Shown: positions 5,219-24,791 of the stretch, in pieces
Layout: every line of letters starts with the position of its first letter
Numbering within the stretch: position 1 is the stretch's first letter
NCBI GenBank assembly: GCA_963718585.1
Contig: OY970357.1
Span: forward strand, 870,001 to 902,000
DNA: 32,000 nt
Direction: 5' to 3'
Origin: Candidatus Saccharimonadota bacterium
Lineage (GTDB): Bacteria > Patescibacteriota > Patescibacteriia > 2-12-FULL-60-25
Program-made: the position numbers and the translations under genes
Notes under the pieces: generated by a model
Seen by the model: only the letters and a program-made list of their open reading frames with translations
Told to the model about the DNA's origin: nothing
Databases searched by the model: none

Positions 5219-5227
5219 CTCTCTCTT

Positions 5228-5263: not shown

Positions 5264-8200
5264 ATGACTGAACACCGAGCTGCAAGGCGCCCGGATACAC
5301 GACCCATGGCCGCCACGGCGTCAAGTTCGGAAGCGTCGTGTCACAGGTATTGGTGACCGACTTCCCTTGTCCCGTCCCCAATGAGAACGGCACTTTCGAG
5401 TTATCGACGTTGTAGAGCCGCGTCGCATCATAACACCCGCCATTTTGATACAGGATCGTATTCGTATACCCACCGCCGCTGAAACCAGCACCTGGCTGAT
5501 TCCCACCGAGATCCTGGATCCGACATTCTCCCGTACACCAGCCCCAGGCGTCCTTCAGTTGCACCCGCGGCGTGAACCGGCACGCTGCATTCTGTGCGTC
5601 ATAACACCCACCCGGCGGCGCAAGATCCGAGAGACATGTGTCCCCCACCGCGCAATTCGCATCGCTCGTACATTTGCGATCTGTATCACGGGAGCATCGC
5701 TTTTCATTCCCACATGCCGGCAGACTCGCCTCCTGCTGCTTGGAGCAGGTGTAGGCATGCGAGTAATCGAAGTAGTTTTGCTCACATGCGGAATCGGTAT
5801 TCCCGAATGTCGTTCGGATCACGCATTTATCGGTGACTATGCCGACCGTACAATCGCTATCGGTCTGACATGTCACGTTCGGCCGCGCATTACAGAATCC
5901 GGTATTGATGCACTTCCCCCCTCCCGGCGGACAATCCGCATCCGAGGAACAGGTCAGTCCCGGCGTGAATTCACACTCCTTCGACACACCGCAGAACGGC
6001 TTTTTGTTCTTCATCTTCGCATCATGCGTTTCCGTCGTCTGGCCATCACCCCAATCCACGATCGCATCGGTCAACGGACCTTGATTGTCCGCGGCCCAAC
6101 CGTAGAAGCGGAGCGTCGCGATCGCTTGTCCGCCGACATACGCGACCTTGCCTTCGGTCTGATTCTCAAAGGTGAATGCATTCGTCCGTGCGACCCCGCA
6201 CTGCCCGGCCGCCTGGCAGGCGTGACCCGTATCCGGCGCCGCCATGGTCGGCGGACGCGGGGTGTAGTACGAGACGTAGCGCTGGTCGAGGGCGGCGAAC
6301 AGATTCGGGTTGTTATTGATCTGCGCGAGATAGTCCGGCGTGTAGTGTCCCGGCGTCACATCCGTCGGCGGACTCTGGAGCGAGAGATTGTTCGAGGTCT
6401 TCGACCCGATCGTCGACAGGTCGTTCTGCCTGATCGCGGTCAAGCATTCCTGACGATCCGGCATGTCGCCACAGAGATCAGCGCGTGCATAATACCCCGC
6501 ATTATGTGTACAGAGATTGTTATCCGTATCGAGATTCTGAGAATGCGAATCACCGCTCGCCTGATCACAATCAAAGCTGATGCGATATTGCGAAGGAACA
6601 GCACCCTGATAATCAGCACTTGCACTCGAGTTCGGTATAAGCGCGTTATTCGGCCCAGATGTGCTTACCGGCTGACAGAAGTAGCCGGATTTCGTGACAT
6701 CCGTCTGCGACAAGTCCGGCGGCGCACAATCCGCATTCTGCGTGCAGTTCGAGCCTTCGTATGCCCCGCCTTCGCAGATTCCCGGGGTCCAGCCTGGGCC
6801 GCGATATCGAGAACTGTCGTATGGAGCTGTATGTGGCACCTTATCCACCGGTGGGCGCTCGCAGTGTCCTGGAATGAATATCTGATAGTCATCGCCTGGC
6901 AGAGGCGTCTCGACGAAAACACCTGGAAATTTATGAAGTTCAGCTGCTTTCGAAGGAAATACAAGGTAACGACCTTTACGAAGATCTTTCCCGCCAATAT
7001 CATTTCCGTTTTTAACACCATCGCTACTATCGTTCCGATTTCCTGCACCCGCACTCGGAATCCACCAATCATTCGTACCTACGTCTCCAAGCGTAACATT
7101 GGTATAGGGTTTATTTACCGTCGAATCATCACCGCCGCCGTATGTCTCGAAGTATGGCGCATTGGCCCAGAAATAGTCCTTATGTCCCTCGATCGTGAAA
7201 TTTCCCTGGCCTGCTGGATATGGATTTGGATAATCTTTGCCATTGTTCCACCATTCGATCCATGTAAACTCACAATCAGAACTCTGAGTGCAAGCGGCGT
7301 GCTCATACCCATTCGTGCAATGATTATTTACGCACTGTGCGTGTTGCTCCCCGTCATTCGTATCAGGTCCCGATAAGACCTCGATCGGGCACTCTTGCGA
7401 GATCGACGCAACTTTCGTACACGAAACACTGACTGGATCTCCGTTTGGATCCGGTTTTCCATTCTTATATTTGACCGGGTAATGGACCGCGTTATTCGCA
7501 CAACGCATGGCGCCAAGGTCTGAAGCTGCTTGAGCTGTCTGACAGATAATAGTGTCACCCGCCTGACACGTGGAATGACCTGACGCTTGACAGTTGCAAG
7601 CCGTGTTCGCATTCGCGTTCTTTATCATCGTTGCATCCTGAACATTCTTAAAGGTATACGTCAGATTGTTCTGTTCCCATCCAGATTGCAGATCGCACGA
7701 TGTGTACTGCGGCTGAAGCTGACCTTGGACCAACTTCATTGGCGCGTTATGGCAGACACCATACCCTTCTAGCTGATTCCCAAGGTCGCCTGAACACGGC
7801 AAGCCTGAGTTCACGCCAGAAAGCGAGTTGCACAATGCTTGGCCCTTAGATGCGTCGATGAGTTTGGAGTTACACGTTCCGGCATAGCCACAGTAAGTAA
7901 TGGACGCATTGGTCATGTCCGTCGCTGTGGCACCCGAAGCCGGCGTGGGACACCAGGCGCCAAAGCGCGGACCATCGATACAGGCGTATGACGTCTTGCC
8001 GACCGGACGGTCATACCAGCGATAGACGCGGTAGACCCGTGCGAAGATGTTCGTCAGCCACGCCCAGTTTCCGGTCGGGACGACACTCCCCTTGTTCGCA
8101 TATTCCGCCCCGGCTGAAAGCCAGATCGGCGGACGGAGCTTGTTGTCCGAGCCCGGCATTGCGCCAGGGACCTGATACAACGGAGAGATGCCGATCGGAG

Positions 8201-11200
8201 CCGAATTCCTTGCCGAACCGAATGGGGCGTTCTTCGTCGAGTACGTGTCACCCAGCACGGGTACGGTGTAATTCGCGTCCTGCTGGATGCGATCCATGAA
8301 CGGTGTCGCATCTCTTGTATCCGGGGCCACGACCTGCGCGACCTGATGACAGATATCGCTGTGACCGACCACGAGACCCATATAGATCGCGCTCTCGCTT
8401 TGTCCGCCTGGCATGGATGCTGTGACCCAAAAGCCGACGAAACGGAACGGACCCGCGAGCTGCTGCGGATTCATCTCCTCCGTCGCAATGCCATTCTCGT
8501 CCTTGTTCGTGTCCTCGAACATCGCGCGGATCGAGAAGAACGGCTTGCTTGAATCGCTCTTTTGATAATAGACGTACGGCTCATCGAACTTCACCGGTCC
8601 GCCATATTCCGGCCACTGCATGCGGAACTCCTTTTGACCGGAGTTCTGGTACCCGATCTCCCAGTACCGATAGAAACAGTTCTCGTCATTCGGCGGCTTA
8701 TCACCATCATACTTACACGGAACCTTTTGAAGCGCCGTCCCATCGCTATTCATGAAATTCTGTGCCGAATCCGGCCCCATGGTCTGACTGAAATTCTGAT
8801 TGAAATGCTTCAGCCAGTCGTTCGTCCCCTTGTTGAGATCATCCGTGTTGTCGTAACTATCCACACTGACGCCGGCCCAGTTGCCGCTGAATCCGCATCC
8901 GATGATCCCGTTGCCCGGATTCGACATGGGTTTGAATGTGAAGTTCGAGAAATTCCGCTCGAGCATGGCATCGCACGCCGAGGAATCTGGATGAGTCAAA
9001 CAATAGTCCGGAGCTTTATCTAACTGATAGAGGAATTTCGCCCACTGCGGACCGTTGAAGCCGATGAAGTATTCATCATAACTCCTCCCGGAACCGCGAC
9101 CCGTCTGGATCCAGCGACCGTAGGCCTGTGAGGCCATATGACTCGAATTGATCAGGCCGAATCCCGAGGTGATACCGCCAGCAAAAGTATAAGACTCGAC
9201 CGTGCTCCACGCGCTCGGATTCCCGCCATTCTCCTGGTCATCCGCCTGCTCACACTGAGACCCCATGGACCCGCCATCTGCACTGTTCCCATCGATGAAC
9301 GTCCCGTCGTTCCCAGCGCAGGCGAAACAGCTTCCATCCGAAACATAATCTTCATCGAAGTTGAACTGACCCTTTCCTTTCATCTGCCCCGGCGCACCGA
9401 GCCAACTTTCGCTCGCGGGGATCGCCGTCGTCTTTGGCGGAAGCGCATTCGCGACGCAGTAGTATTCTCCGCTGTTCGCAGGCGGCAGATATCCGGCGGT
9501 CGGCTGATAGTGATAGATATCGCTCTGACCGAAGAGCACAGGCGTCGGATCCCACACGAGACACGGATTATGCTCCTGCGACCCGCCGATGACGCGCGAC
9601 GGATCACGCTGGAGGCACTGGCCGTATTGCCCACGAACCAACGCGATCGTATCGATCGGTGAACAGACACCAGACCCGCACTGATTGAACGTACCTGTAC
9701 TCGTCGCAACGGCACTGCCTTGCGTGCTCCCGTCTGTTTTTGGAACCTCTCCACCCGCATTGCCCGCTCCCGTATCGCAGGATACCCCGTCTTTCTGGCC
9801 CCCGACGCAGATCCCGCTCGGCGGTGTCTGCCCGTAGAGCTGGTAATATAACGTCTTTCCGCCATAACTGATCTTCCGATAGCTGCACGAACAATTCTCC
9901 CCATACTGACAAAAAGTCGCGCTATCATATCCATCCGCTACCTTGGAAGGTTGCGGCGGATCCTTGGTCAGATCCCAGTTCTTCACATACCACGTGGGGA
10001 ACGGCGAAGAAGATTCTGGATAAGCTTTGCACTCCGCCGGCGGAAACGCATCCGAGAGTGGTTGGAAAATGGCTGGGTCCTTCAACTGTTGGAACATGAC
10101 GGCCGCATTCTCCGCATTTCGCGGGTTGGTGTTCGACTGTCCGAATAGCTCTGCCGCACTCTGGACATACGGTGCATCGATCGCAAGATAACAATTCTTC
10201 GGTTCCGCAGGGATACGTGCAGGCGGCACCGCCTTGGATTGTTCTTCAGCACTGACGAGGTAGTACCCGACCTGTCCCGTCGCCACACTGCGGCACAGAT
10301 TCAGATAGGGATACTTCGGATCGACATAGAGTGCCGCAGCTCCTTTGCAGGTGCTCTTCAGTTGCGATGCCCCGCCTGACTGGAGAGCGTTCGCGCATGC
10401 GTTAACTGCCGCGTTGTAGTCACTGACTGTAGTGCCGTTAATTTGAGAAACGATCGGCAAGGCGGCGGTAAGCCGATAATCATGGATATATGTATCTTTC
10501 GTGTTGTCATTCAATCCGGCAAGAAGCTCATACCCAACGCGACGCGTCGAGTAATCGGCGATCTGATAATGGTTCGGCAATGCATACCCGCTGTAATCAG
10601 GGTCACTGAAGCCGGTCGGCCGATCCATGTATGTGGGAAGATCAAGGAAGACCCCCTGTCGCAAGACCGGCTCATAGAATCCTTCTCCCTGCTTCGGGAC
10701 GGGCGCGGTCGGAGAACGATCCACGTAATGCGCGCAGAAATTCTTCGACGTGGACCCACCTGGTTGATCGCACACCTTGAGGTCCGTGCAAATGTCCACG
10801 TATTTTTGCTGGGATGGATCATAGACCGTCTCCGCCGTGGCGCATCCGAGCCAGGTCTGACAGTCACGGTCAAGTTTGACCTTCACGACCGTATTCGCGT
10901 CATTGACCATACACGTCCCCTTGACGTCATAGCCATCTGGATCCGCGTATGCCGACGTATGCGAACAATCCGTATCGGTCGTACACGATGCCCCTGACTT
11001 TTGTGAGATGAAGTTCGGCGCGCTATCTGCTGCATTTGGATTGCATCCATTCCCTCCACAACCAAGTTGAACGAGATCCTGACACGTTCCGGCATTTTTA
11101 CACGCCGCATTCGAAGGATCCGTCACGCAGTTCACCGCCGCGACCGGGTTGTCATTTTCTTGTTTTAACTTGGCGTACGTCGCCTTCGATGAATATAACA

Positions 11201-14200
11201 ACTGGCTATTGCCCATGTCTCGGAAAAGCACGCATCCATTCAGCGGATCCGCGATGCCGTTGCAGGTCGAGAGATCAAGCTTATTGTTCGCGATGAAGAA
11301 ATAGGACTTTCCGCCCGGATGCGCCGGGTCCGTATGATCGTTCGGGTCGCGATATTCCGTGCACTCGGACTGATCCTGCGGACATAGCTCCGTCCATCCA
11401 CGATAATTCGGTGCCGCGGAGAAGGACATGAGGAAGTTGTTCCCGCTCGAAAGCAGATCCGGGTAACACGGTTCAGGAGGATCCACGCCTTGGACGAAGA
11501 ACCCGGAATATTCACCAGCGGGAAAGGTCGTCCCGTACTTGGTCACCGTGTCCGGCAAAAGGACACGCTCACGCCATTCGCATGCATGGTTCCCCATGGC
11601 CGCCGGGTCACGGAAATAAGCAGCCGTCTGTCCGCTCTGGAACGCATCGCAGAACAACGCACTCGGGCGACACAACATGTCGGGATTCCCATTCCCGTCG
11701 ACATACTTGGTGATGTCATCCTTCAGATAGACGGTCTTATATCCGCTCGGCTGACCATCTGCACTAAAGGTCGGTTTGCCAAAGGCGCGACATGACTCCT
11801 GTGAGGCATCACAATGCGCTGACGGTTCATCAATGAGGTAGGCATACCGATCTGCTGGCCGGGTGACCGTGTTGTCACCGGCATAATAGGAATCCCAATT
11901 CTTCGCATTCGGTCCGGACGGGGCCGAAAGACCTTTCATCGTGAAAGACTGCGCGGACGCATCGTCAGAATTGCGCGTGTCGACGAAGGCCGAACACCCG
12001 ATCGCCTGCTCTTTACAGAGTCGGGAGAACTGACGAACATCTACGGTATTCCCCAGGCGATCAGTGTATTCCCGACATCCAAGCATTGCTTGTGGCTGAG
12101 GCACTCCCTGCGCCGTCTGGTCACATTCGGCTGGAGTGGTCCACGAATCCTTCTTCACGTAGATCGCATCCTGCAGACGGGATACACGGATCTCGTCGAG
12201 ATACGTGACGTTCGTCAACGAATTGAACTCGAGGAAGACCTGGCCCGGTGCACTTGTGCGGAACGGACCGATCTCATACCGCGCCCAGTCCGTCCCGAGC
12301 GTGAATGAGCCAACGGTTGTCTTTCCGACCACGATCTTGCTGTTCGGATCGTGCGACGCATCAGTGGTCTTGGCCCAGAACGAGACCGTATACAGCGTGT
12401 CCGTCGTCGCCTCGAACGGAAGTTTGATCCCGACGTATTTTTGATTGGCCGTGGTCTCGAGTTTCAACGAATAATCTCCGACCAAGAGAGATTCTGTAGA
12501 GTAGGATACATTCGTCGAACCATCTCCGAAATACGGCGTCGTACTCGTCGCCCCTGCAAAACTCTCATGAAGGACCGTATAGGTATTCCGACCCGTCGTT
12601 CCGATATATCCGCGGCATCCGGCGTTATCCGCCTGACAGGTGTTGCTTGCCGATGGCAGGATCTTGTAGAGACAATCCTTCGTGCCCGCACCCCCCGACG
12701 TTCCGCCCGTCTTGGCACAATCAGCTGGCGTCGAATTGCTCTTCCGATAGTCCACACACGCATCGGAAGAGACCACGGTCTGCGAGAAGAATCGATAGAA
12801 GATCTTCCCGGCTTCATCATAGAACTGACGACAATCCGTATCTGCACCGCTCTGCCAGAACGTATCCGTACATAACTCCGGCTTCTTTAGGATCCCATCC
12901 GGGCCGGCTTTGTGCAGGATCTTCGGACCGCCCGCCGTCTCCGTCGGAGATCCAAGATCATCCTGCGGATTTGTCGGATCCTCCTTGATCAAACTCCACG
13001 TCCGCAGCTGATATCCCGTCGTATCAGAACCTTCCCAGGTGAAGTAGGTTCGGCTGTTATCGTTCGGCTTCTCACAGGCACGCGCGTACGTGTAGTACGC
13101 CTTCGCCTCCCCGCCGGCAGAGGACGTTTCGAGGTTCGTGAACTCCTCACATCCCGCCTGCGCCGCCGTACACTGCTGTGCCTGCTTGGGGATGAAGGTC
13201 GCGTTCGTATCATCCTGTGCATCGTCTAAGAACGTGTCGGGGCTGTGTGTCAGATCGAACGCGGAGGGCAACTTCTGATACTGAGCATATCCGACACAGG
13301 AGTTCGGGCAGTAATCGTTCGCGCTCAGGATGGCCGGCACTTCGGTCGGATCGCCTCCACTCGTATCGGTATACCCCTGACACCCCACATCGCCCTGACT
13401 GCAGACCCGCGCAAAATCTCCGCAATGCGGATTATCTTTGTTCGCATCGCCCGTACACGCAAGCTCCTCCGGAGCGATCTTGAGGTGATCCGCGCGGAGC
13501 CCACGATTCACCCCGTCGACATATGCGGTCGCCGCATTCCCCTCTTCCAACTGGACCGCATCGATCTTCGCATTGGCTCCCTGCACGATGACGTTCGCCT
13601 GTGCCGCGTCCTTATTCGTCACGAATTCGCACGTTGCGCGCACCCACGTGTCCGTCAAATTATTATTCGTAACTCCTGGAGAGGTCTGACTCTGACTCGA
13701 ACAATTCGAACTTCGGAAGTATCCCTGACCGACCGGCGGAGTCGCGACGACCTTCCCCGAAGCATCCAAAAGCTGAACGTTGACGGCCGAGCTGCCTCCC
13801 GCATTGAAATCACCGATCTTTGCATAAAAGGAAACGACGTAATTCCGCAATGGCGCGACGGCGACAGATTCCGTCAATGAATTCGCCGTATCCAAGACCG
13901 CTGCCTGATTCCCGTCTTCCGCATCCCCCTCACCTTCCGGATTCGCAACATAGGTATACGTTCCATTCGGAGTCCATATATCCAACGCATTCGGATCCGC
14001 GTCCGATGGGTTCTCAAACGAGCTGTTCTGCACCAGATTCAATGCCGGCTGACCGGGCTCGACATGATAGACCTTCGTGCATCCGTCACCGGACGCGTCA
14101 CATGGTTGAGCGGTCGCGTCGAAGTACACGCGTGGCATTGCCGCCCCTTTCGCAAGGTTCAGCGACGGATACGCCTTTGGAAGATTCAACTTGATGCTCG

Positions 14201-16148
14201 ACGGGTCTCCGGTCGATGTCGTACTCACCCACGCGACCGTCGAGGTGACCGACGGATCCTCGGTCGTCGCATAGAACATGCAGCCGACATTGTCCTGGTT
14301 GCACTGTCCGTAATCCAGCGTGTTCCGAACATACGAGACCTGCTGCCCGTTGCTCGCACTCCCCTGACGGGTCGTATACGTCCGACAGGATGCGTATTTC
14401 TCTTCACAGACATCTGCACTGAATCGCCAAACCGTTTTTTCAGAGAGACAATATCCGTATCCACCGACGCAGTTCCCCTTATCGTCCCGCTTGAGACAAG
14501 AGACGACGTCCTGACACTCCTGTTGTCGGCTCCCTGCGGCATCCACCGTATCGCTGTACCCCCGTGTCTGGCACTGGAATGGCGGTGCGGTCAAAACCCA
14601 TGACGGATCGATCAAATGACACCAGGGGTGCCCCGCATCCGCCTCGTCCTTGGCATTACAGACATTGAAACCGCGGATCACTTCGCCGAGCGTCACATAT
14701 CTTCCGTTCGCTTTCTTGTTGAACGGTGAATTCGCGGCCAGTTCCCAACCGATCGGGATGATACGGGCAAACCGCAGCTTCGCGAGGTTCGAGGAACAGT
14801 ACGCACGCTGATAACAGCTCGGATCCTGGTTGTCCTTTGCTTCAGACTCCGGGATCAACTCCCAGTCGGAATGCAGATATTGCTGACCCGAGACCCCCTG
14901 CGTATTCCCCAAGCCCGCGGCACGTGCGACCGTGTACGCCCCATTCTCCGTGGCACTTTGAAGCGCGCTCGCGAGACCGCTATCCATGGAACACCCCCAC
15001 GTCCCGCGCGGCGTCGGACATGATGAGAGCTCGAAGAGGAAATTCTGCTTGTCTGATGAAACAAGGTTCGGCGTGATGAAATCACTGATGATCGCCGCCT
15101 TCTGCTTTGCGGATTTATCCTGTGCGGATCGCTGAAGATCGACGTTCAACAGGTTCGTATTGTCGTTCCCGCTCCCGATCCAGTTGAAGAACTTTTGGAC
15201 CAGACCGACGGCGAGTGTATTCAGGAAGACCGCACCGGCGAATTCCGGCAACTGCGACAAGCCGGCATTGAACGCCATCAAGGCCTCGGTCGAGGCGAGG
15301 TTTTGTGCATTCTCCTTCGCGAGCTGGATCGGATTCGAAGCCTGCAACGCCTGCTGTGCAGCCAAAGCAGGGGTCGTGATGTTCCCCGCGGCATCCTGCA
15401 GAAGCTTGAACCCTTTCCCCTCCTGTCGATCGAAGGTATACGCCTCCTTCGTGTTCAGGAATTCATCGAGGAATTTCTGATTGCTCGAAAGCGCGAGGCT
15501 CGCGCCATTCTGACCCGGTGAGTTCGCGCGCAAAAGCGTGTCACGGAGTGCCTGCTCATTGAACGCCTGGTATGTGGTCTTGAAATTGGTCGCGATCGTC
15601 TCGAACGTACAATCAGGCTGCTGTAACGGAATGCGGGAAAGTCCCAACGACAACTTGAGATCCAGCGTGATCGGCTGACAGATGTCGATCCCCAGCTCGC
15701 TCTTCAGGTACTGATCATTGAACGAACTGATCATGACGTTGAACGAATTCGTCACGACATCTTTGAAGAACCCACCCCACCCTTTGCTATAGAAGGTCGG
15801 TTCCCCGTTGAACCCGGTCAACACCCAATCGGCCATGTCGGTCATGATCCGTTGGGTGAAGTAGCTGAGACCATTCAAGATGGACGTCGCGACCGCAAAC
15901 TGCCAGGTCTTCTGCAGCTGATCTTTGATCGCGGCGTTCATCTGATTGACGAACTCATAATAATGACACTCATTGATCACCCCGGTTCCGACAGAGAGGA
16001 ATGAGCAGGGATAGAATGGTGACCCAACAGGGAACTGCGTATCCGCCTTTGCCGGGGTCGGGATCCCTGATGTGACGATCACAAGCATGGTAAGCGCCAC
16101 CACGGTCGCACCCTTTGCCAAGTTCCGGTACCAATCACGTCCGATCAT
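5262..16148 (-). CDS. giant secreted/surface Cys-rich protein, 3,628 aa (signal peptide, two CBM/concanavalin-like jelly rolls, split PKD-like C-terminus); whole-protein family unknown
   Basis: It is a single uninterrupted 10,887-nt ORF. The N-terminus MIGRDWYRNLAKGATVVALTMLVIVTSGIPTPAKA/DT looks like a Sec signal with an A-x-A site. The first ~370 aa are Cys-poor (4 Cys by my count). Cys density then rises: 17 Cys in aa ~370-700 and 22 Cys in the last 293 aa. Module signatures are described in the findings. Terminators follow the stop codon. Confidence 0.9.
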   Translation of the reverse strand: MIGRDWYRNLAKGATVVALTMLVIVTSGIPTPAKADTQFPVGSPFYPCSFLSVGTGVINECHYYEFVNQMNAAIKDQLQKTWQFAVATSILNGLSYFTQRIMTDMADWVLTGFNGEPTFYSKGWGGFFKDVVTNSFNVMISSFNDQYLKSELGIDICQPITLDLKLSLGLSRIPLQQPDCTFETIATNFKTTYQAFNEQALRDTLLRANSPGQNGASLALSSNQKFLDEFLNTKEAYTFDRQEGKGFKLLQDAAGNITTPALAAQQALQASNPIQLAKENAQNLASTEALMAFNAGLSQLPEFAGAVFLNTLAVGLVQKFFNWIGSGNDNTNLLNVDLQRSAQDKSAKQKAAIISDFITPNLVSSDKQNFLFELSSCPTPRGTWGCSMDSGLASALQSATENGAYTVARAAGLGNTQGVSGQQYLHSDWELIPESEAKDNQDPSCYQRAYCSSNLAKLRFARIIPIGWELAANSPFNKKANGRYVTLGEVIRGFNVCNAKDEADAGHPWCHLIDPSWVLTAPPFQCQTRGYSDTVDAAGSRQQECQDVVSCLKRDDKGNCVGGYGYCLSEKTVWRFSADVCEEKYASCRTYTTRQGSASNGQQVSYVRNTLDYGQCNQDNVGCMFYATTEDPSVTSTVAWVSTTSTGDPSSIKLNLPKAYPSLNLAKGAAMPRVYFDATAQPCDASGDGCTKVYHVEPGQPALNLVQNSSFENPSDADPNALDIWTPNGTYTYVANPEGEGDAEDGNQAAVLDTANSLTESVAVAPLRNYVVSFYAKIGDFNAGGSSAVNVQLLDASGKVVATPPVGQGYFRSSNCSSQSQTSPGVTNNNLTDTWVRATCEFVTNKDAAQANVIVQGANAKIDAVQLEEGNAATAYVDGVNRGLRADHLKIAPEELACTGDANKDNPHCGDFARVCSQGDVGCQGYTDTSGGDPTEVPAILSANDYCPNSCVGYAQYQKLPSAFDLTHSPDTFLDDAQDDTNATFIPKQAQQCTAAQAGCEEFTNLETSSAGGEAKAYYTYARACEKPNDNSRTYFTWEGSDTTGYQLRTWSLIKEDPTNPQDDLGSPTETAGGPKILHKAGPDGILKKPELCTDTFWQSGADTDCRQFYDEAGKIFYRFFSQTVVSSDACVDYRKSNSTPADCAKTGGTSGGAGTKDCLYKILPSASNTCQADNAGCRGYIGTTGRNTYTVLHESFAGATSTTPYFGDGSTNVSYSTESLLVGDYSLKLETTANQKYVGIKLPFEATTDTLYTVSFWAKTTDASHDPNSKIVVGKTTVGSFTLGTDWARYEIGPFRTSAPGQVFLEFNSLTNVTYLDEIRVSRLQDAIYVKKDSWTTPAECDQTAQGVPQPQAMLGCREYTDRLGNTVDVRQFSRLCKEQAIGCSAFVDTRNSDDASAQSFTMKGLSAPSGPNAKNWDSYYAGDNTVTRPADRYAYLIDEPSAHCDASQESCRAFGKPTFSADGQPSGYKTVYLKDDITKYVDGNGNPDMLCRPSALFCDAFQSGQTAAYFRDPAAMGNHACEWRERVLLPDTVTKYGTTFPAGEYSGFFVQGVDPPEPCYPDLLSSGNNFLMSFSAAPNYRGWTELCPQDQSECTEYRDPNDHTDPAHPGGKSYFFIANNKLDLSTCNGIADPLNGCVLFRDMGNSQLLYSSKATYAKLKQENDNPVAAVNCVTDPSNAACKNAGTCQDLVQLGCGGNGCNPNAADSAPNFISQKSGASCTTDTDCSHTSAYADPDGYDVKGTCMVNDANTVVKVKLDRDCQTWLGCATAETVYDPSQQKYVDICTDLKVCDQPGGSTSKNFCAHYVDRSPTAPVPKQGEGFYEPVLRQGVFLDLPTYMDRPTGFSDPDYSGYALPNHYQIADYSTRRVGYELLAGLNDNTKDTYIHDYRLTAALPIVSQINGTTVSDYNAAVNACANALQSGGASQLKSTCKGAAALYVDPKYPYLNLCRSVATGQVGYYLVSAEEQSKAVPPARIPAEPKNCYLAIDAPYVQSAAELFGQSNTNPRNAENAAVMFQQLKDPAIFQPLSDAFPPAECKAYPESSSPFPTWYVKNWDLTKDPPQPSKVADGYDSATFCQYGENCSCSYRKISYGGKTLYYQLYGQTPPSGICVGGQKDGVSCDTGAGNAGGEVPKTDGSTQGSAVATSTGTFNQCGSGVCSPIDTIALVRGQYGQCLQRDPSRVIGGSQEHNPCLVWDPTPVLFGQSDIYHYQPTAGYLPPANSGEYYCVANALPPKTTAIPASESWLGAPGQMKGKGQFNFDEDYVSDGSCFACAGNDGTFIDGNSADGGSMGSQCEQADDQENGGNPSAWSTVESYTFAGGITSGFGLINSSHMASQAYGRWIQTGRGSGRSYDEYFIGFNGPQWAKFLYQLDKAPDYCLTHPDSSACDAMLERNFSNFTFKPMSNPGNGIIGCGFSGNWAGVSVDSYDNTDDLNKGTNDWLKHFNQNFSQTMGPDSAQNFMNSDGTALQKVPCKYDGDKPPNDENCFYRYWEIGYQNSGQKEFRMQWPEYGGPVKFDEPYVYYQKSDSSKPFFSIRAMFEDTNKDENGIATEEMNPQQLAGPFRFVGFWVTASMPGGQSESAIYMGLVVGHSDICHQVAQVVAPDTRDATPFMDRIQQDANYTVPVLGDTYSTKNAPFGSARNSAPIGISPLYQVPGAMPGSDNKLRPPIWLSAGAEYANKGSVVPTGNWAWLTNIFARVYRVYRWYDRPVGKTSYACIDGPRFGAWCPTPASGATATDMTNASITYCGYAGTCNSKLIDASKGQALCNSLSGVNSGLPCSGDLGNQLEGYGVCHNAPMKLVQGQLQPQYTSCDLQSGWEQNNLTYTFKNVQDATMIKNANANTACNCQASGHSTCQAGDTIICQTAQAASDLGAMRCANNAVHYPVKYKNGKPDPNGDPVSVSCTKVASISQECPIEVLSGPDTNDGEQHAQCVNNHCTNGYEHAACTQSSDCEFTWIEWWNNGKDYPNPYPAGQGNFTIEGHKDYFWANAPYFETYGGGDDSTVNKPYTNVTLGDVGTNDWWIPSAGAGNRNDSSDGVKNGNDIGGKDLRKGRYLVFPSKAAELHKFPGVFVETPLPGDDYQIFIPGHCERPPVDKVPHTAPYDSSRYRGPGWTPGICEGGAYEGSNCTQNADCAPPDLSQTDVTKSGYFCQPVSTSGPNNALIPNSSASADYQGAVPSQYRISFDCDQASGDSHSQNLDTDNNLCTHNAGYYARADLCGDMPDRQECLTAIRQNDLSTIGSKTSNNLSLQSPPTDVTPGHYTPDYLAQINNNPNLFAALDQRYVSYYTPRPPTMAAPDTGHACQAAGQCGVARTNAFTFENQTEGKVAYVGGQAIATLRFYGWAADNQGPLTDAIVDWGDGQTTETHDAKMKNKKPFCGVSKECEFTPGLTCSSDADCPPGGGKCINTGFCNARPNVTCQTDSDCTVGIVTDKCVIRTTFGNTDSACEQNYFDYSHAYTCSKQQEASLPACGNEKRCSRDTDRKCTSDANCAVGDTCLSDLAPPGGCYDAQNAACRFTPRVQLKDAWGWCTGECRIQDLGGNQPGAGFSGGGYTNTILYQNGGCYDATRLYNVDNSKVPFSLGTGQGKSVTNTCDTTLPNLTPWRPWVVYPGALQLGVQS

Positions 16149-16864
16149 AGGCCGCTTGCGCTCGTCCCCCCGGTCGACGTCTGACCGGCGGATTGAGAGT
16201 CATATTGGCTCATCGCCTGATCATAGGCGTCCAACAGTTGCTGGTCCGTCGCAGTATCCAGGATGGATTGATCCACCTTCCCCTGCAGAGCCTGCCGGAT
16301 GACCGTCGGATCGCGAGGAATGGAGGATAGATCTGGCGAACCGGATCCTGCGGTCGCTGCAGCCGTTCCGCTGAGGTCGGCCGCGCTCGGCACGGTCGGC
16401 GCAGTGGGAGCAGACGGTGTTGGAATGGTGGGGAGCGCGAACGGCGTCCCGGACGATGTCAGCGCCGCCGAGACATCCATGAGCCCACCAGGATTCCCGC
16501 CGCCGTTCAGACACGCGATATTCTTCCCGGTCACGACACGAACATTGTCTGGGATCCCGTCACCACAGGAATCTTTAAGGTTGGGATTCGTATGAAAGAC
16601 GTTTATCTCATCCCAATCCGAAAGTCCGTCACCATCTGTGTCGGTCCGCTTCTGCCGCGCTTCATCTTCCGCCGGCGTCGTCCCGATCAATTGCTTCGTG
16701 GCGATGAGGTCTTGCTTGTTGACGAGGAACGGAGCGTACACGCTTTGTTGGATATGATAGAGAGAAAGCACAACAGCAAAGATCCCACAGACGCCCAAAA
16801 CCCAAACAGAGAGCTTCTGTTCGAGGGAAAAGCTTTGCCAGCGTTCACGGACAGATTGCCACAT
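16145..16864 (-). CDS. single-pass membrane protein with thrombospondin-type-3-like Ca-binding repeat and P/T/S/A-rich linker
   Basis: 239 aa. The TM helix is KLSVWVLGVCGIFAVVLSLY (aa ~17-36). The repeat TDTDGDGLSDWDEINVFHTNPNLKDSCGDGIPD (aa 73-106, nt 16547-16648) matches the D-x-D-x-D-G-x-x-D-x-x-E type. A low-complexity PTIPTPSAPTAPTVPS linker follows. The stop overlaps the giant-gene start in ATGA (16145-16148). Confidence 0.8.
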   Translation of the reverse strand: MWQSVRERWQSFSLEQKLSVWVLGVCGIFAVVLSLYHIQQSVYAPFLVNKQDLIATKQLIGTTPAEDEARQKRTDTDGDGLSDWDEINVFHTNPNLKDSCGDGIPDNVRVVTGKNIACLNGGGNPGGLMDVSAALTSSGTPFALPTIPTPSAPTAPTVPSAADLSGTAAATAGSGSPDLSSIPRDPTVIRQALQGKVDQSILDTATDQQLLDAYDQAMSQYDSQSAGQTSTGGTSASGL

Positions 16865-17568: not shown

Positions 17569-19446
17569 CTATGGCGTTGCCATCGCCGTACTCGTCGCAT
17601 CCGGCGTCGATATTTTATCGACGCCAACAAGACAGACGGCCTGCCAGGGTTTGTAGTGGCTATGAAAATCCTGCGTCTTTACGGTCCCATCCGGATAGGT
17701 CACATCGTACGTGAAATCCGCGTCAGCGCCGGCATGCGCGCTCTCCGTGCACCTCTTCTTCCCTGGCGGAAGATCGAGCGTTTCAACGAGCCTCACCGGC
17801 GGCGGCTGGGTGACGTTGTACACGCGCGGGATCAGATCGCTGACGTTCGTGACGGTCTTGATACCGGAGTACGACTCCGTTCGACCGTCACGCGTTCCCC
17901 AAAATTCAAAGGTGACGATCGACCCCTTGATATACGCGTTGATGAAGACGGGATGTCCCGTATCGTTCGTAAAGCGCAGATCCGGCTGCGGGTCATAGAT
18001 CGTGGCATCCGTTCCCGCGGGTTCATAATAGACCACGCGATAACTGTGATTTTGACGTTCGGTGATCGGCAAACCTGAGGCCAATGCCGCACGGAACGTC
18101 GTGGTCCCGATCTGACACAATCCGCCACCGAACTCCGGAAGCGTCTCATTCCCTTTGATGACCAGCTCTGGGAGCCACCCGTGCGCTCCATCGATCTCCC
18201 CGAGCGTCTTGATCAGCGAAAACGTATCGCCTGGCTGAATGATCGTTCCATTCATGATCGCCACGCCGTGCTGAATGTTCTTGATCCGATTCGCCGGAGA
18301 ACGGAGGAAATTCGAAGTGCCGACGCCTAACAGATCCGTGATCCCCATCCGCTGCGGGTCATCACCGACCAGTGTTCCCTGTGTGGTATGCAAAATGATC
18401 GGAAACGTCGAGGAAGCGGGCCAATGCGCGTCCACATCCGCAAGCGTTGCCGCGGTATCGATCTCCCGCCCTTCCGTTCCGTGGGTGAACGAGACGATCT
18501 TCCCATCCTGGACGGTGAGTCCCCCGTTCTTCGCCGGAGTTTGAAGATCTCCGGTCAGGGCAACGATCCCGGTCGCGAATTTATCCGGATCGATGACCAC
18601 GTCCATAGCTCCCGGCGTCCCGGTGGCCGCCAACCAACTGACAAGCGTAGAGGTCGGGACCGGATAAGATACATCACCCGTCGTGAAGACCAACGGCGGA
18701 CGATGGAGGACCTCTTCGGCGCGGGATACGAGCGGCTCGATATCCGTCGCATGGATGCTCGCCGCAACATGCTTATCCGTCAGTGTGATCGGATCGAACT
18801 GCAGGACCTTCGCCTCTAGGCGAAGCCGTGCAAGTGCCGCGTCCGTGTCCAGGACCACGCCGTCCATCTCGTGCTGAACGCTGACGCTCGGCGGCGTGCT
18901 CGACGCATCAAAGATCAGATGGGCGTCCTGCGGCGGATGGAGATCCGTCGCAAAACTCGCATCTAGGGCGCTCATGACTCCCTGCGTATCGATCGTGATC
19001 GGTGTCTCGACATTGGTCGGCGAGATCCGAAGCCCAAGCTGTTGGAAGACGTCCTGCCCCCAACGACCGCTGCGTCCAAGGGCATACGCCCTCTGCACTG
19101 CGGTGTCGATGTCATAGTGGACGAGGTCATGCGAGACATCCGGATCCTCAGCCGTGGTCGAAGGACCGACACCGATCTCCTTCCCGTCATAGCGGAACCG
19201 GACCCCGTCCGCGAGGGATTGATCGATCGCGTGTTGGACGGCGGTCCGCGCCTCGGTCACGGTCATGCCATCGAGACGAACACTGAGAATGCGGGTTCCT
19301 GGGAAGATCCGATTCTCGTATAAGCGGGCATACGCCACCATCGCGCCGGAGAACATCAAGACCGATACGGCGATCACCCCGACGGTCGCCGAGGTCCAAA
19401 TAAGCAAGACGCGGACACTGAGGGTTCGCGACGTCGTTTTTGCCAT
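17569..19446 (-). CDS. VanW-family protein with N-terminal membrane anchor (YoaR-like)
   Basis: 625 aa. The N-terminal TM is LLIWTSATVGVIAVSVLMFSGAMVAY. The C-terminal VanW core is GGGLCQIGTTTFRAALASGLPITERQNHSYRVVYYEPAGTDATIYDPQPDLRFTNDTGHPVFI. Confidence 0.9.
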   Translation of the reverse strand: MAKTTSRTLSVRVLLIWTSATVGVIAVSVLMFSGAMVAYARLYENRIFPGTRILSVRLDGMTVTEARTAVQHAIDQSLADGVRFRYDGKEIGVGPSTTAEDPDVSHDLVHYDIDTAVQRAYALGRSGRWGQDVFQQLGLRISPTNVETPITIDTQGVMSALDASFATDLHPPQDAHLIFDASSTPPSVSVQHEMDGVVLDTDAALARLRLEAKVLQFDPITLTDKHVAASIHATDIEPLVSRAEEVLHRPPLVFTTGDVSYPVPTSTLVSWLAATGTPGAMDVVIDPDKFATGIVALTGDLQTPAKNGGLTVQDGKIVSFTHGTEGREIDTAATLADVDAHWPASSTFPIILHTTQGTLVGDDPQRMGITDLLGVGTSNFLRSPANRIKNIQHGVAIMNGTIIQPGDTFSLIKTLGEIDGAHGWLPELVIKGNETLPEFGGGLCQIGTTTFRAALASGLPITERQNHSYRVVYYEPAGTDATIYDPQPDLRFTNDTGHPVFINAYIKGSIVTFEFWGTRDGRTESYSGIKTVTNVSDLIPRVYNVTQPPPVRLVETLDLPPGKKRCTESAHAGADADFTYDVTYPDGTVKTQDFHSHYKPWQAVCLVGVDKISTPDATSTAMATP

Positions 19447-22350: not shown

Positions 22351-22413
22351 ACGTCGAAGGCATAGCGTAACGGAATGGCGCTCGAATGGGTAGGGGGACG
22401 GCGCGAGAATGGG

Positions 22414-22442
22414 TTGACGGAAGCATCCATCTCGCGTATACA
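22414..22442 (+). promoter_or_regulatory. candidate sigma70 promoter (TTGACG-17-TATACA) for the 22479 gene
   Basis: The -35 is at 22414-22419, followed by a 17-nt spacer and the -10 at 22437-22442. An SD AGGAG (22469-22473) lies 5 nt before the ATG at 22479. Confidence 0.4.
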
Positions 22443-22478
22443 CCCATCGGTTCTTTTCCCCCTCACACAGGAGAACGA

Positions 22479-23165
22479 ATGTCCGAATTGGAATGTGCCC
22501 CCGCATCGCTCGAAGGGTCTCAGGCAGCATCGGAGAGACCCGAGGATGGTCCATTGATCCGCTCCCTCGAGGATCGCTACCCGTTCGCCATGCCGCTCAT
22601 CGAGCACGTCGCGCACCAGCGGCGCATCAAGCGCAAACCTGTCTATATACACGACCTGTCCATCGCGAAAGACCCGCAATATGCGGAAGTGGTCGAACTC
22701 CTCGCCGGAACCGCGGCAAAAGGCGCGATCCGCGCCGCATGCCGGTCGATGATCTTCCTGCTCGACGGACGACGCATCATCGCCATGCACGAATCATTCG
22801 CCGGGACCGAAGCGTTGCGCACGGCCCTCGAACAGGAGATGACGGTGAAGCGCGCTGGACGGATGGTGCATCTCCGGATCCATCACACACAAGCGCTCGA
22901 AGTGCTCGAAGACTTGGCGCATCGATCGCGGATACTCAAAGAGACCGCGGCCACCGACATCCCCGGTCCGGTATCGGTCCGCCATGCCATCCTCGAATTG
23001 CTCGCCATCACCCCGATCCGCCTCGATCTCGAAGAACGGTATCGGACGTGCTTCGAGGTCTGCTTGCCGGGACGCATCTTCGCGCACCGGCTCACTGGTG
23101 GCCGATCTTCCGGATACGCCTTCGTCCCACCCGAGCAACAGCTCCAACTGTTCAACGTCTCCTGA
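22479..23165 (+). CDS. hypothetical protein (228 aa, no family recognised)
   Basis: I take the internal ATG of the listed 259-aa ORF because of the SD AGGAG. Codon usage (atc, ctc, gcc, gaa, G/C-ending) matches housekeeping genes. A strong terminator follows. Confidence 0.6.
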   Translation: MSELECAPASLEGSQAASERPEDGPLIRSLEDRYPFAMPLIEHVAHQRRIKRKPVYIHDLSIAKDPQYAEVVELLAGTAAKGAIRAACRSMIFLLDGRRIIAMHESFAGTEALRTALEQEMTVKRAGRMVHLRIHHTQALEVLEDLAHRSRILKETAATDIPGPVSVRHAILELLAITPIRLDLEERYRTCFEVCLPGRIFAHRLTGGRSSGYAFVPPEQQLQLFNVS

Positions 23166-23174
23166 TCAGCTCCC

Positions 23175-23203
23175 CCGCCCTCCACACTGGAGGGCGGATT
23201 TGT
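23175..23203 (+). terminator. rho-independent terminator
   Basis: CCGCCCTCC-ACACT-GGAGGGCGG is a 9-bp GC-rich stem (23175-23197), followed by ATTTGTAT. Confidence 0.6.
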
Positions 23204-23253
23204 ATCTCCGAACATGGACGCCAGCGACGATCTTTGATAGCGTCGGTTCGAGT

Positions 23254-23607
23254 ATGACGCATCGATTCGAACAAAGCATGATCCATCTGCGCGAAGCCCT
23301 CGCACGCGTCCTGACGGAACGCGTGGAATTCCCCCGCGGGATCTTCGTGACCGTGCTGGAGGTGAAGATGACGCGGAACCAGACGCAGGCAAAGGTCGTC
23401 CTCTCCGTTCTCCCGGTTGACCAGGAGGAGACGGTGTTGAAGACCCTCAATGACAAGGATACGGCACACGAGATCAAGGATGGACTCGCCAATGCGGTCC
23501 GGCTCCGCCACATCCCGAGACTTCACTGGACCTTCGATGAGACCGAGGCCGCGGCCGCGGACATCGATGCGACGATCAACGAACTCAAGGCAAAGGGGGA
23601 GTTATAA
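23254..23607 (+). CDS. rbfA: ribosome-binding factor A
   Basis: 117 aa from the ATG at 23254. The translation LREALARVLTERVEFPRGIFVTVLEVKMTRNQTQAKVVLSVLP...IKDGLANAVRLRHIPRLHWTFDETEAAAADIDATINEL shows the RbfA pattern (R-x-x-P-x-L-x-F-x-x-D). Confidence 0.85.
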   Translation: MTHRFEQSMIHLREALARVLTERVEFPRGIFVTVLEVKMTRNQTQAKVVLSVLPVDQEETVLKTLNDKDTAHEIKDGLANAVRLRHIPRLHWTFDETEAAAADIDATINELKAKGEL

Positions 23608-23608
23608 A

Positions 23609-23710
23609 CTAGAAGCTAGAAGCTAGAAGCTAGAAGCTAGAAGCTAGAAGCTAGAAGCTAGAAGCTAGAAGCTAGAAGCTAGAAGCTAGAAGCTAGAAGC
23701 TAGAAGCTAG
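23609..23710 (+). repeat. perfect heptanucleotide tandem array (CTAGAAG) x14 plus a 4-nt partial unit
   Basis: The array starts 2 nt after the rbfA stop. The units are identical by direct reading (23609+7k). Each unit carries TAG on both strands, so stops occur in all six frames. Confidence 0.97.
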
Positions 23711-23714
23711 GGAG

Positions 23715-23742
23715 AGAATGGACCCGATCCGGTACCCATTCT
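23715..23742. other. hairpin between the direct and inverted heptamer arrays
   Basis: AGAATGG-ACC-[CGATCC]-GGT-(AC)-CCATTCT gives about 10 bp with a 2-nt bulge. Confidence 0.5.
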
Positions 23743-23772
23743 AGATTCTAGATTCCAGCTTCTAGATTCTCG
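23738..23772 (+). repeat. degenerate inverted copy of the heptamer array (ATTCTAG ATTCTAG ATTCCAG CTTCTAG ATTCTCG)
   Basis: Five 7-nt units are present. CTTCTAG is the exact reverse complement of CTAGAAG, and the others differ at 1-2 positions. Confidence 0.7.
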
Positions 23773-23787
23773 ATCCCGGACACCCCC

Positions 23788-23816
23788 TTGACCCCTCGCC
23801 CATTTTCCTCTACGTT
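23788..23816 (+). promoter_or_regulatory. weak promoter candidate (TTGACC-17-TACGTT) for the DHH gene
   Basis: The -35 is at 23788-23793, followed by a 17-nt spacer and the -10 at 23811-23816. The -10 ends 9 nt before the ATG at 23826, giving a near-leaderless geometry. Confidence 0.25.
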
Positions 23817-23825
23817 GTTCGATCC

Positions 23826-24791
23826 ATGAAAACCCCTCTCCCGGCGACGTTCGCCCACCTGCATCATGCGATCCGCACGTCGGACCGCATTTTGCTCGTG
23901 GCGCATAAAAAGCCGGATGGAGACACGCTTGGCTCGAGCTCAAGCGTCCTCAACTGGCTTCTGCGCGAAGGGAAGGATGTCACCGCGTTCTGTCTCGACA
24001 CGCCACCCGTCGTGTTCCGCTACCTCGATAACATCCATCAGTATACGAATGACCCGTCGGTCTTCGATCAGCCCTATGACCTGGTCATCATCTTCGATTC
24101 CGGGGATCTGAAATACTGCGGCGTGGACGCGTTCATCCCACGCCTGCCGCCCGGCTACCTCCTCGTGAATCTGGACCACCATCGGACCAATACGCATTTT
24201 GCGCATCTCAACATCGTCCTAACAGATGCGAGCTCCACGGCCGAGGTCGTCCATCGGTTCTACGAGGCGAATCGGATCCGTATCGACAGCGCGATGGCGA
24301 CATCACTCCTGACCGGCCTTTTCACCGACACCTCAAGCTTCACGAACGCGGCGACCAACCCGATCGCGGTCCGCGCCGCGTCGAAACTTCTCGCAGCCGG
24401 CGGACGCCAGCGCGACATCGAGATCCATCTCATGCATGACAAGACCGTCCCATCGCTCCGTATCTGGGGTACGATCCTCTCCCGCCTGCGGTACGACCGG
24501 ACGCACGACGTGGCCACCACTTATTTGATGCGATCAGATGCGAAAGAAGTCTCCACGGACATCATCGAAGGCGTCTCGAATTTCCTCGCTGCCATGCTGG
24601 GTGAGACCGACACGATCTGTTTCCTCCGAGAGCTTCCGGACAACAAAGTGAAGGGGTCGTTCCGCAGTCATACGCGCGACGTCAGCAAGGTCGCCATGCT
24701 CATGGGCGGGGGCGGCCACAAGCTCGCGGCCGGTTTCACGGTCGACGGACATATCGAAGAAACCTCAAACGGCCCGCGGATCGCGGTGTGA
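23826..24791 (+). CDS. DHH/DHHA1-family phosphoesterase (NrnA/CnpB-like nanoRNase or cyclic-dinucleotide phosphodiesterase)
   Basis: 321 aa. It has the motifs ILLVAHKKPDGDTLGSS, IIFDSGD and NLDHHRTN (DHH), plus the C-terminal GGGGHKLAAGF (DHHA1). An rbfA-DHH adjacency is also seen in actinobacterial nusA-infB-rbfA-cnpB clusters; this point is from memory. Confidence 0.85.
   Translation: MKTPLPATFAHLHHAIRTSDRILLVAHKKPDGDTLGSSSSVLNWLLREGKDVTAFCLDTPPVVFRYLDNIHQYTNDPSVFDQPYDLVIIFDSGDLKYCGVDAFIPRLPPGYLLVNLDHHRTNTHFAHLNIVLTDASSTAEVVHRFYEANRIRIDSAMATSLLTGLFTDTSSFTNAATNPIAVRAASKLLAAGGRQRDIEIHLMHDKTVPSLRIWGTILSRLRYDRTHDVATTYLMRSDAKEVSTDIIEGVSNFLAAMLGETDTICFLRELPDNKVKGSFRSHTRDVSKVAMLMGGGGHKLAAGFTVDGHIEETSNGPRIAV

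Follow-up and report, generated by a model that had tools for sequence, protein, structure and literature searches.

We analysed a 32,000-nt stretch of the genome of a Candidatus Saccharimonadota bacterium of the Patescibacteria (contig OY970357.1, positions 870,001 to 902,000; here the window), in which a long, perfect tandem array of the heptamer CTAGAAG lies between rbfA, encoding ribosome-binding factor A, and a gene for an NrnA-like DHH/DHHA1 phosphoesterase (the DHH gene). The array faces a shorter and degenerate inverted copy of itself across a spacer with a central hairpin. We think it rather likely that it is a slippage-prone heptanucleotide microsatellite, the expanded arm of a lineage-specific foldback element that sits past the rbfA stop codon and ahead of the DHH promoter. 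The locus belongs to a known class, the bacterial heptanucleotide simple-sequence repeats, and does not represent a new system. In its effect, the array is probably nearly neutral.

Anatomy of the element and its absence from relatives

Tandem Repeats Finder (TRF) reported a perfect CTAGAAG tract of 102 nt at 23609-23710 (period 7, 14.6 copies, 100% matches, score 204) and a second tract at 23738-23774 (period 7, 5.3 copies, 83% matches, consensus ATTCTAG). A two-unit probe allowing up to 2 mismatches found 16 matches in the window, all of them inside the element, where dinucleotide-preserving shuffles gave an expectation of 0.06. The array described in an earlier note on this DNA is thus real, perfect and far beyond chance. 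It consists of head-to-tail units within the 1- to 11-nt range of long simple-sequence repeats (LSSRs) or microsatellites, in a run longer than chance allows, and, as expected when the unit length cannot be divided by 3, it is non-coding, since it follows the rbfA stop codon and precedes the DHH promoter. It carries stop codons in all six frames, as the earlier note had stated. The features discussed here are as follows.

23215 to 23243, + strand: rbfA promoter-like site, TGGACG at 23215-23220, 17-nt spacer, TAGCGT at 23238-23243, 10 nt to the ATG (sequence reading)
23254 to 23607, + strand: rbfA, ribosome-binding factor A, 117 aa (Pfam RBFA, E = 9e-15; stop codon TAA at 23605-23607)
23609 to 23710, no strand: perfect (CTAGAAG)x14.6 array (TRF, pattern statistics, six-frame stops)
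23711 to 23737, no strand: spacer with decayed units and the central hairpin, which spans 23715-23742 (sequence; stem present in the RNA centroid and in the single-stranded DNA [ssDNA] fold)
23738 to 23774, no strand: degenerate inverted arm, ATTCTAG, ATTCTAG, ATTCCAG, CTTCTAG, ATTCTCG, AT (TRF; reverse-complement consensus CTAGAAT)
23788 to 23816, + strand: DHH-gene promoter, TTGACC at 23788-23793, 17-nt spacer, TACGTT at 23811-23816, 9 nt to the ATG (seven-region alignment)
23826 to 24791, + strand: DHH/DHHA1 phosphoesterase, NrnA-like, 321 aa (Pfam DHH and DHHA1)

A single base, A 23608, separates the rbfA stop codon from the first unit. Downstream, a 27-nt spacer (23711-23737) divides the array from the inverted arm, close to the distance of about 28 nt given previously. 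Two decayed units can be recognized in the spacer, with CTAGGGA GAGAATG G read from 23707, as can a hairpin formed by AGAATGG and CCATTCT (23715-23721 and 23736-23742) with 3 further pairs past a 2-nt bulge. The earlier note had described a 10-bp hairpin; its total of ∼10 bp holds, but the stem is not a clean one, since it is made of 7 bp, the 2-nt bulge and 3 more. The five units of the right arm are exactly as first described. Over 32 nt (23739-23770) this arm is complementary to the array at 88% in 11 successive registers, so that the "slippery duplex" imagined for the pairing is an apt name. The general rarity of CTAG was also borne out: outside the element the window contains 4 CTAG sites against 11.6 expected, the lowest ratio among the 16 palindromic tetramers, whereas the 171-nt element contains 18, compared with those 4 in the other 31.8 kb. 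The distance to the downstream -35 box of the DHH promoter is 78 nt from the end of the array and 13 nt from the end of the whole element.

We consider it extremely improbable that the repeat was collapsed or fabricated during assembly. A 102-nt perfect repeat is difficult to assemble at its true copy number, and a unitig from short-read run ERR11571143 (Logan; L121) stops within the pure array, having covered 30 nt of repeat, the outcome expected for an array that exceeds the assembler's word length. However, this independent unitig has the same junction, followed by an arm, flank and DHH gene identical to those of the window. Moreover, the junctions of the element with rbfA and with the promoter are clean, and similar arrays are present in many finished genomes. 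The unitig therefore supports the existence of the array but says nothing on its copy number. A look-up with the DHH protein returned just this one short unitig, and an exact-protein look-up of RbfA returned no record.

We compared the locus with orthologous regions from six relatives whose DHH proteins are 69-75% identical to that of the window, giving seven regions including the window. The gene order, an SMC gene on the - strand and rbfA, DHH and clpP on the + strand, is common to the window and all six relatives, and gyrA (- strand) is also visible at the locus in two of the six. In five relatives just 2-40 nt of unrelated sequence lie between the rbfA stop codon and the -35 box of the DHH promoter (TTGACG), and in some the promoter abuts the stop codon; the sixth relative (L122) has an unrelated insert of ∼270 nt in the spacer. 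This comparison had been proposed in the earlier note, and it found the heptamer array in none of the six orthologous spacers. Since these relatives share the gene order but lack the array, the ∼165- to 180-nt element is, as judged from the aligned regions, a lineage-specific insertion in an ancestrally tight junction between stop codon and promoter. The earlier note had held that an invariant copy number together with absence from all relatives would weaken a regulatory role; as to the second part, the array is indeed missing from these six, but they are distant ones. In the sixth relative, the insert (L122, 2170-2500) contains an 81-aa - strand open reading frame (ORF) with a 33-nt direct repeat, and a bAvd gene and a reverse-transcriptase gene, a pair resembling a diversity-generating retroelement, lie at 5190-5960, ∼1.7 kb downstream of the rbfA-DHH spacer.

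The same alignment showed that the positions of the DHH promoter, TTGAC-N17-TAnnnT-N9/11-ATG, are invariant in 7/7 genomes while the surrounding sequence has diverged. Because these positions stand out from diverged sequence, we read them as a real, conserved and near-leaderless promoter. The earlier note had taken this promoter to be weak and had suggested phase variation through changes in its context, and neither proposal was supported: the promoter is conserved throughout the alignment, and its -35 box comes after the entire element, with the fixed arm and 13 more bases as a buffer. With the conserved promoter downstream of the element, the number of units cannot set the spacing between -35 and -10 or change the 5′ end of transcripts from that promoter, and a promoter-spacing phase switch is unlikely. 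A classical contingency locus, in which unit number would alter the promoter context (UP-element region, activator distance or topology) and switch the DHH gene on and off, we likewise regard as very improbable. The array does end only 78 nt and the element 13 nt from the -35 box, and a long perfect repeat would be expected to be hypermutable. Yet the array is outside the -35/-10 gap, outside the promoter-derived 5′ untranslated region (UTR) and outside any ORF, and it would fall within a 5′ UTR solely for transcripts that read through from rbfA. The right arm and the 13 bases after it keep the sequence beside the -35 box constant at any copy number, and five of the six relatives use the same promoter with 2-40 unrelated nt upstream, which indicates that no upstream element is needed. 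Contingency loci are typically found at surface or restriction-modification genes. The gene class is atypical here, with no surface, host-interaction or restriction-modification gene in the flanks; the neighbors rbfA, the NrnA-like DHH phosphoesterase gene and clpP are housekeeping genes, which further disfavors phase variation.

Folding, transcription and a proposed mechanism

We examined whether the two arms are predicted to fold on each other as RNA, as the earlier note had suggested, and as ssDNA. The RNA fold of 23665-23785 had a stability of -39.1 kcal/mol (z = -2.4), and the whole rbfA-DHH intergenic region gave z = -2.2 on the + strand and -1.6 on the - strand; a hairpin is thus predicted, but one only modestly better than shuffled sequences (z of -2.2 to -2.4). 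The RNA centroid of 23665-23785 retains just the central 7-bp stem because the arms pair in many competing registers. As ssDNA, the same segment folded at -27.3 kcal/mol with z = -5.7, none of 200 shuffles was equally stable, and the fold also contained the central stem. Pairing in 11 registers, together with the strong ssDNA hairpin, would be a plausible aid to misalignment.

A terminator scan of 23600-23830, from rbfA to the DHH gene, found no intrinsic-terminator-like site, and the sequence directly 3′ of the element hairpin, AUCCCGGACACCCCC, contains no U-tract. An intrinsic (Rho-independent) terminator is ruled out by the missing U-tract and the negative scan. We also rejected a CRISPR array, since the 7-nt units are contiguous and without spacers, whereas CRISPR repeats are ∼24-48 nt long and alternate with unique spacers of similar size. 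A replication origin is ruled out by a GC skew that is monotonic over the window, a coding repeat by the six-frame stops, and no quadruplex is possible because the CTAGAAG unit is not G-rich. Searches with Rfam 15 at gathering score found no match in the window, and Rfam at gathering score found none in 18 loci with heptamer hairpins from the survey described below; a permissive Rfam scan gave sub-threshold likeness to generic miRNA-precursor hairpins only (20-25 bits, where the cut-offs are 67-79). The window contains no tRNA or tmRNA gene.

Taken together, these data suggest the following mechanism. A foldback element, in which a short hairpin is flanked by two heptamer arrays that face each other, would have been inserted, or would have grown, in the lineage of the window, and the number of its units would shift in 7-nt steps through slipped-strand mispairing. 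The fixed, degenerate arm may pair with the array in each of 11 registers to give an ssDNA (or RNA) hairpin and so favor misalignment. Repeated slippage would maintain the purity of the array, whereas its edges and the facing arm would degenerate; slippage turnover of one arm in this way fits the 14 pure units, the decayed inner edge and the decayed arm opposite. Because no terminator intervenes, we infer that the array is transcribed with rbfA, as its 3′ untranslated or intercistronic region, and in this transcript the last 4-5 units and the arm would form an imperfect, register-ambiguous hairpin. The DHH gene is served by the conserved near-leaderless promoter downstream of the element. Any effect of the element is likely limited to read-through, processing or 3′-end stability of the rbfA transcript, and the effect of the hairpin would be modest at most.

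By analogy of architecture, the closest studied counterpart is the phase-variable (ATCTTTC)n repeat of hmw1A/hmw2A in Haemophilus influenzae, where the heptamer repeat makes up the left arm in a long, imperfect hairpin whose fold is not altered by extra repeats, and expression and repeat-number change both require RNase III and transcription (PMC12721329). As in hmw, the 3′-proximal units in the window would pair with a downstream complementary stretch, extra units would lengthen a single-stranded tail, and the repeat is presumably transcribed. As for the long, RNase III-processed hairpin typical of hmw-type contingency loci, a hairpin between the repeat and its downstream arm is predicted in the window, but with an RNA z of only -2.4. 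The two loci differ in that the hmw repeat lies in a 5′ UTR, downstream of the adhesin-gene promoter, whereas the window array lies upstream of the promoter of the next gene, in the 3′ region of rbfA; the window genes are, moreover, housekeeping genes, and the window hairpin is a prediction from sequence.

The main rival to the slippage-prone microsatellite is an RNA switch of the hmw type. Here, the 3′-most units and the right arm would form a hairpin that is cut by RNase III, copy number would tune the stability or translation of the rbfA mRNA or of a read-through rbfA-DHH-clpP mRNA, and RNA structure would promote repeat-number change. We regard such a switch as rather unlikely. The resemblance to the hmw 5′ UTR (PMC12721329), the predicted + strand hairpin and the lack of a terminator between rbfA and the array all speak for it, as do two results of our genome survey, the recurrence of an array with an inverted arm (26% of arrays among the matches listed) and the conservation of some arrays between species. 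However, the main DHH transcripts, starting from their own downstream promoter, would lack the element, the RNA fold surpasses shuffles in stability by a modest margin only (z = -2.2 to -2.4), and the element is absent in all six relatives of the window. The neighbors are housekeeping genes, and arrays at 3′ ends are equally frequent in both orientations across the class.

CTAGAAG and other heptamer arrays across genomes

We surveyed one genome per Genome Taxonomy Database (GTDB) species for three perfect CTAGAAG units and obtained at least 120 loci (L001-L120); the survey statistics use rough ORF calls and carry no phylogenetic correction. Arrays of three or more units thus occur in many phyla, and the matches listed include Acidobacteriota (many), Vibrio, Flavobacteriia, Chryseobacterium, Xanthomonas, Stenotrophomonas, Pseudomonadales, Oceanospirillales, Alcanivorax, Planctomycetota, Armatimonadota and Patescibacteria (seven). 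In viral contigs, (CTAGAAG)3 was present in 8 loci and two control heptamers of equal composition in 29 and 15, where a rough estimate puts the chance expectation for any such 21-mer at well under one. As the controls are equally common or commoner, the CTAGAAG sequence itself is not special. Among the matches listed, 325 of 911 tandem repeats have period 7 (194 of them not CTAGAAG), compared with 48 of period 6 and 44 of period 8. The window array is among the longest, since only 5 of the 123 arrays among the matches listed reach 14 units, with a maximum of 17.9. An inverted heptamer arm (at most 5 mismatches in 21 nt, within 150 nt) was found opposite 31/119 arrays (26%) among the matches listed, and opposite none in shuffled flanks.

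The position and orientation of the arrays gave two different pictures. Many arrays adjoin the 3′ ends of genes; within 10 nt of ORF ends the two orientations were about equally represented among the matches listed (23 and 26), which speaks against a strand-specific RNA role there. In Vibrio and Halomonadaceae loci, arrays adjoin intrinsic-terminator-like hairpins. Near start codons a sense bias was evident, which is weighed below; the sense arrays at these positions include six of the seven listed Patescibacteria loci (L005, L076, L082, L085, L092, L116), where arrays of 3.3-4.4 units stand 4-20 nt upstream of start codons. The products downstream of these Patescibacteria arrays, assigned by eye, resemble ribosomal proteins S2 and S3, a YqgF/RuvX-type resolvase, RecO, a response regulator and a NUDIX-like protein. 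We speculate that short CTAGAAG arrays near starts may act as a pseudo-Shine-Dalgarno sequence or standby site, and that CUAGAAG might pair with the 16S rRNA 3′ tail. The window array does not adjoin a start codon.

Several observations weigh against a microsatellite that is shaped by slippage only. Among the matches listed, arrays within 21 nt of start codons are 19 sense and 3 antisense (Fisher p = 5e-4), and this bias of the short arrays indicates that the class may have functions beyond pure slippage. The units of other heptamer arrays are non-random as well: when period-7 arrays more than 100 nt from a CTAGAAG array were counted among the matches listed, AGCT was present in 30/146 (20%) and CTAG in 13/146, against an expectation of 2.7% for each. 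Copy number and perfect purity are retained in two of three orthologous pairs (L071/L074, L001/L007, L055/L106) despite ∼20% (18-25%) flank divergence, namely in two Vibrio species with flanks 80% identical and 7.1 perfect units in both, and in two Acidobacteriota with flanks 75-82% identical and 3.6 units in both. At such divergence, the probability that a neutral 50-nt tract carries no substitution is ∼1e-5. These comparisons hint at maintenance or selection in at least some class members. In addition, the relatives compared at the window locus are distant ones (69-75% protein identity), and slippage and copy-number change at that locus are themselves what we infer. In a Bacteroidota orthologous pair, copy number does differ, with 8.7 units in one member and 5.1 in the other, which speaks for slippage. 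The persistence of CTAGAAG arrays at orthologous positions is unexpected for a purely neutral, hypermutable tract. The perfect identity of the window units, which the earlier note had put down to recent expansion or active maintenance, fits recent expansion or homogenization, and orthologous arrays elsewhere are likewise pure despite ∼20% flank divergence.

A bolder alternative is that facing arrays, one pure and one decayed, with pairing possible in many registers, are an undescribed cross-phylum class of functional intergenic hairpins, which would be processed or bound as RNA or ssDNA in the way that RNase III acts on the hmw hairpin, would drive their own repeat-number change and, in the window, would tune the coupling of rbfA to the NrnA-like and clpP genes. 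Hints in this direction come from the inverted arms (26% against 0 in shuffled flanks), the recurrence of other units, the perfect arrays of equal length in orthologs, the AGCT preference and the sense arrays at starts; nevertheless, we think this unlikely. A literature search found no bacterial report on a CTAGAAG repeat, and we found no description of the class-level regularities (inverted arms, conserved arrays, biased units) in the literature searched.

Further heptamer hairpins came to light in the same survey. In Acidobacteriota, long hairpins of the form (CTAGCTN)n ... (AGCTAGA)n have unique loops of 4 to ∼110 nt and end 1-25 nt before start codons (L001, L006, L007, L022, L038, L049, L073, L075, L083, L089, L094, L100, L110); that of L094 is placed between genes resembling, by eye, those of ribosomal proteins L13 and S9. 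Inverted pairs with other units occur too, for example TCAGTTC/AACTGAG, and unrelated heptamer arrays, such as CTTTGCC, GCGAGAA and GTCAGAA, often directly adjoin CTAGAAG arrays.

We also considered whether the array could be a platform for a protein, either a single-strand binder with a 7-nt footprint (a cold-shock-domain protein, for example) or a CTAG-recognizing methyltransferase, restriction enzyme or regulator that acts on DNA. Such a role would account for the presence of 18 CTAG sites within 171 nt when the other 31.8 kb has 4, for the non-random units enriched in AGCT and CTAG across genomes and for the arrays kept at orthologous positions, and cold-shock, S1 and CsrA-type binders have been proposed for the heptamer repeat TAACTGA (PMC4679880). 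Nevertheless, no candidate binder gene lies beside the array, arrays are as frequent, or more so, for control heptamers of identical composition, the element is absent in the relatives, and an orientation preference is lacking at 3′ ends, all of which makes protein binding quite improbable. TAACTGA itself forms intergenic direct repeats in Beggiatoaceae, Cyanobacteria and Bacteroidetes (PMC4679880). It resembles CTAGAAG in that one heptamer recurs as arrays in distant phyla and in that short sets lie a few nt upstream of starts, as short CTAGAAG arrays do in Acidobacteriota and Patescibacteria. In contrast, the window array is long, has another unit and abuts a stop codon rather than a start.

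One metagenome-assembled genome of the Pseudomonadales (L012, L043, L050, L096, L111) contains at least five dispersed (CTAGAAG)5-16 elements with unrelated upstream flanks. Each has an array, a conserved ∼14-nt spacer, CAGATGGTTTTGCT, and inverted degenerate heptamers (CAGCTTC CGGCGTC AAGCTTC). By its sequence the family looks like repetitive extragenic palindromic (REP) elements or MITEs (miniature inverted-repeat transposable elements) with an expandable arm. REP elements are imperfect palindromes of 20-40 bp with a terminal GTAG or CGTC tag, present at high copy number (PMC3733652). Like REP elements and bacterial interspersed mosaic elements (BIMEs), the window element is an imperfect palindrome in an intergenic region, with co-transcribed genes on both sides, that may serve as a hairpin at the mRNA 3′ end, and a dispersed family of the same architecture exists in one other genome, that of the Pseudomonadales. 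It differs from the REP and BIME elements described there in its arms of 32-39 nt made of tandem heptamers, in the absence of a tag and in its one copy in 32 kb. MITEs occur in multiple copies and have terminal inverted repeats flanked by a target-site duplication; the window element has inverted ends, and no such duplication was seen at its junctions.

It is therefore conceivable that the window element was delivered by transposition or recombination, as a dispersed REP- or MITE-like foldback element with an expandable heptamer arm, an origin compatible with later behavior as a slippage-prone microsatellite. The five or more Pseudomonadales copies of the same architecture and the discreteness of the window element, an insertion of ∼165-180 nt with inverted ends, are in keeping with this origin. 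We nonetheless consider it decidedly unlikely: the 32-kb window has a single copy, shows no target-site duplication at the junctions and contains no transposase or RAYT-type gene, and the ends of the element read CTAGAAG and ATTCTCG, without GTAG or CGTC tags. Searches of the JGI metagenome collection with the central hairpin or with the array-spacer-arm pattern gave 0 matches, which means that the source population and any sibling elements are absent from that collection.

Neighboring genes and significance of the locus

The C-terminus of RbfA (...ELKAKGEL) agrees with the gene ends in the relatives. The top NCBIfam match of the DHH protein is NrnA, under that family's cut-off, and its homologues are annotated as RecJ-like or NrnA in the source databases; the named ones come from Uhrbacteria or the "Patescibacteria group", which places the host of the window among the Patescibacteria. 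We further propose a promoter for rbfA at 23215-23243; this site has the architecture of the conserved DHH promoter, and a generic promoter scan did not flag it. Both genes seem to be transcribed from TTGAC(G)-N17-TAnnnT promoters, with 9-11 nt left between promoter and ATG, from which near-leaderless mRNAs would follow. On the - strand of the right arm (23745-23773), TAGAAT hexamers fit the local -10 pattern TAnnnT, and in the generic scan one such hexamer was matched to a poor -35 box (TCGAGA); it could be an antisense promoter directed into the array and rbfA. Besides rbfA, DHH and clpP, the window contains genes for YidC, NusA and a VanW-domain protein, together with a short SMC-like ATPase gene and gyrA, both on the - strand. 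An ORF of ∼190 aa on the + strand, in the region 22590-23197 (an internal start within ORF 22386-23165), had no Pfam, NCBIfam or PADLOC match and is followed by a clean intrinsic-terminator-like hairpin (23175-23197) with a T-run. Because just ∼20-100 nt separate the SMC-like gene from rbfA in the relatives, this region is a second lineage-specific insertion beside rbfA. Farther away, a 3628-aa ORF on the - strand (5262-16148) contains no Pfam domain at E ≤ 0.001 and is followed on the same strand by two genes, one at 16145-16864 for a TSP3-repeat protein and one at 17569-19446 for a VanW/PG_binding_4 protein.

Among bacterial simple-sequence repeats with units of 5-11 nt, heptamers form the most abundant class and have been attributed to polymerase slippage (Mrazek 2007, via PMC4679880; PMC4692102). 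The examples given there are the GGGNATC repeats of Xanthomonas and Nostoc and the tandem heptanucleotides of the cyanobacterium Calothrix (PMC4679880, PMC4692102), and long runs have been reported mainly in large, high-G+C genomes (PMC4692102). The window array shares with these LSSRs a tandem 7-nt unit, a non-coding position, a length beyond chance and a presumed origin in slippage, and period 7 is favored over 6 or 8 in the survey loci listed. It also shares with the GGGNATC repeats a position near a stop codon between co-directional genes (PMC4692102). In contrast to those LSSRs, its host is a Patescibacteria with a ∼1-Mb genome, a degenerate inverted arm accompanies the array, and the unit CTAGAAG is not G-rich; the units in our survey are rich in CTAG and AGCT.

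Bacteria carry heptamers more commonly than any other long simple repeat, and the locus bears on why the period is 7 and on whether such arrays act. It is a clean example, with a very long pure array and a fixed complementary arm, set precisely between a stop codon and a conserved promoter. In a minimal genome of ∼1 Mb, little DNA without function would be expected. The interest of the locus lies in this cleanness, in its ∼1-Mb host and in an architecture like that of hmw, the one heptamer repeat with a dissected mechanism. If the array is neutral, it would serve mainly as a marker for strain typing and as a warning for assemblers. The regularities found in the survey, the inverted arms, the arrays shared across species and the biased units, bear on how general hairpin-assisted slippage or RNase III processing may be.

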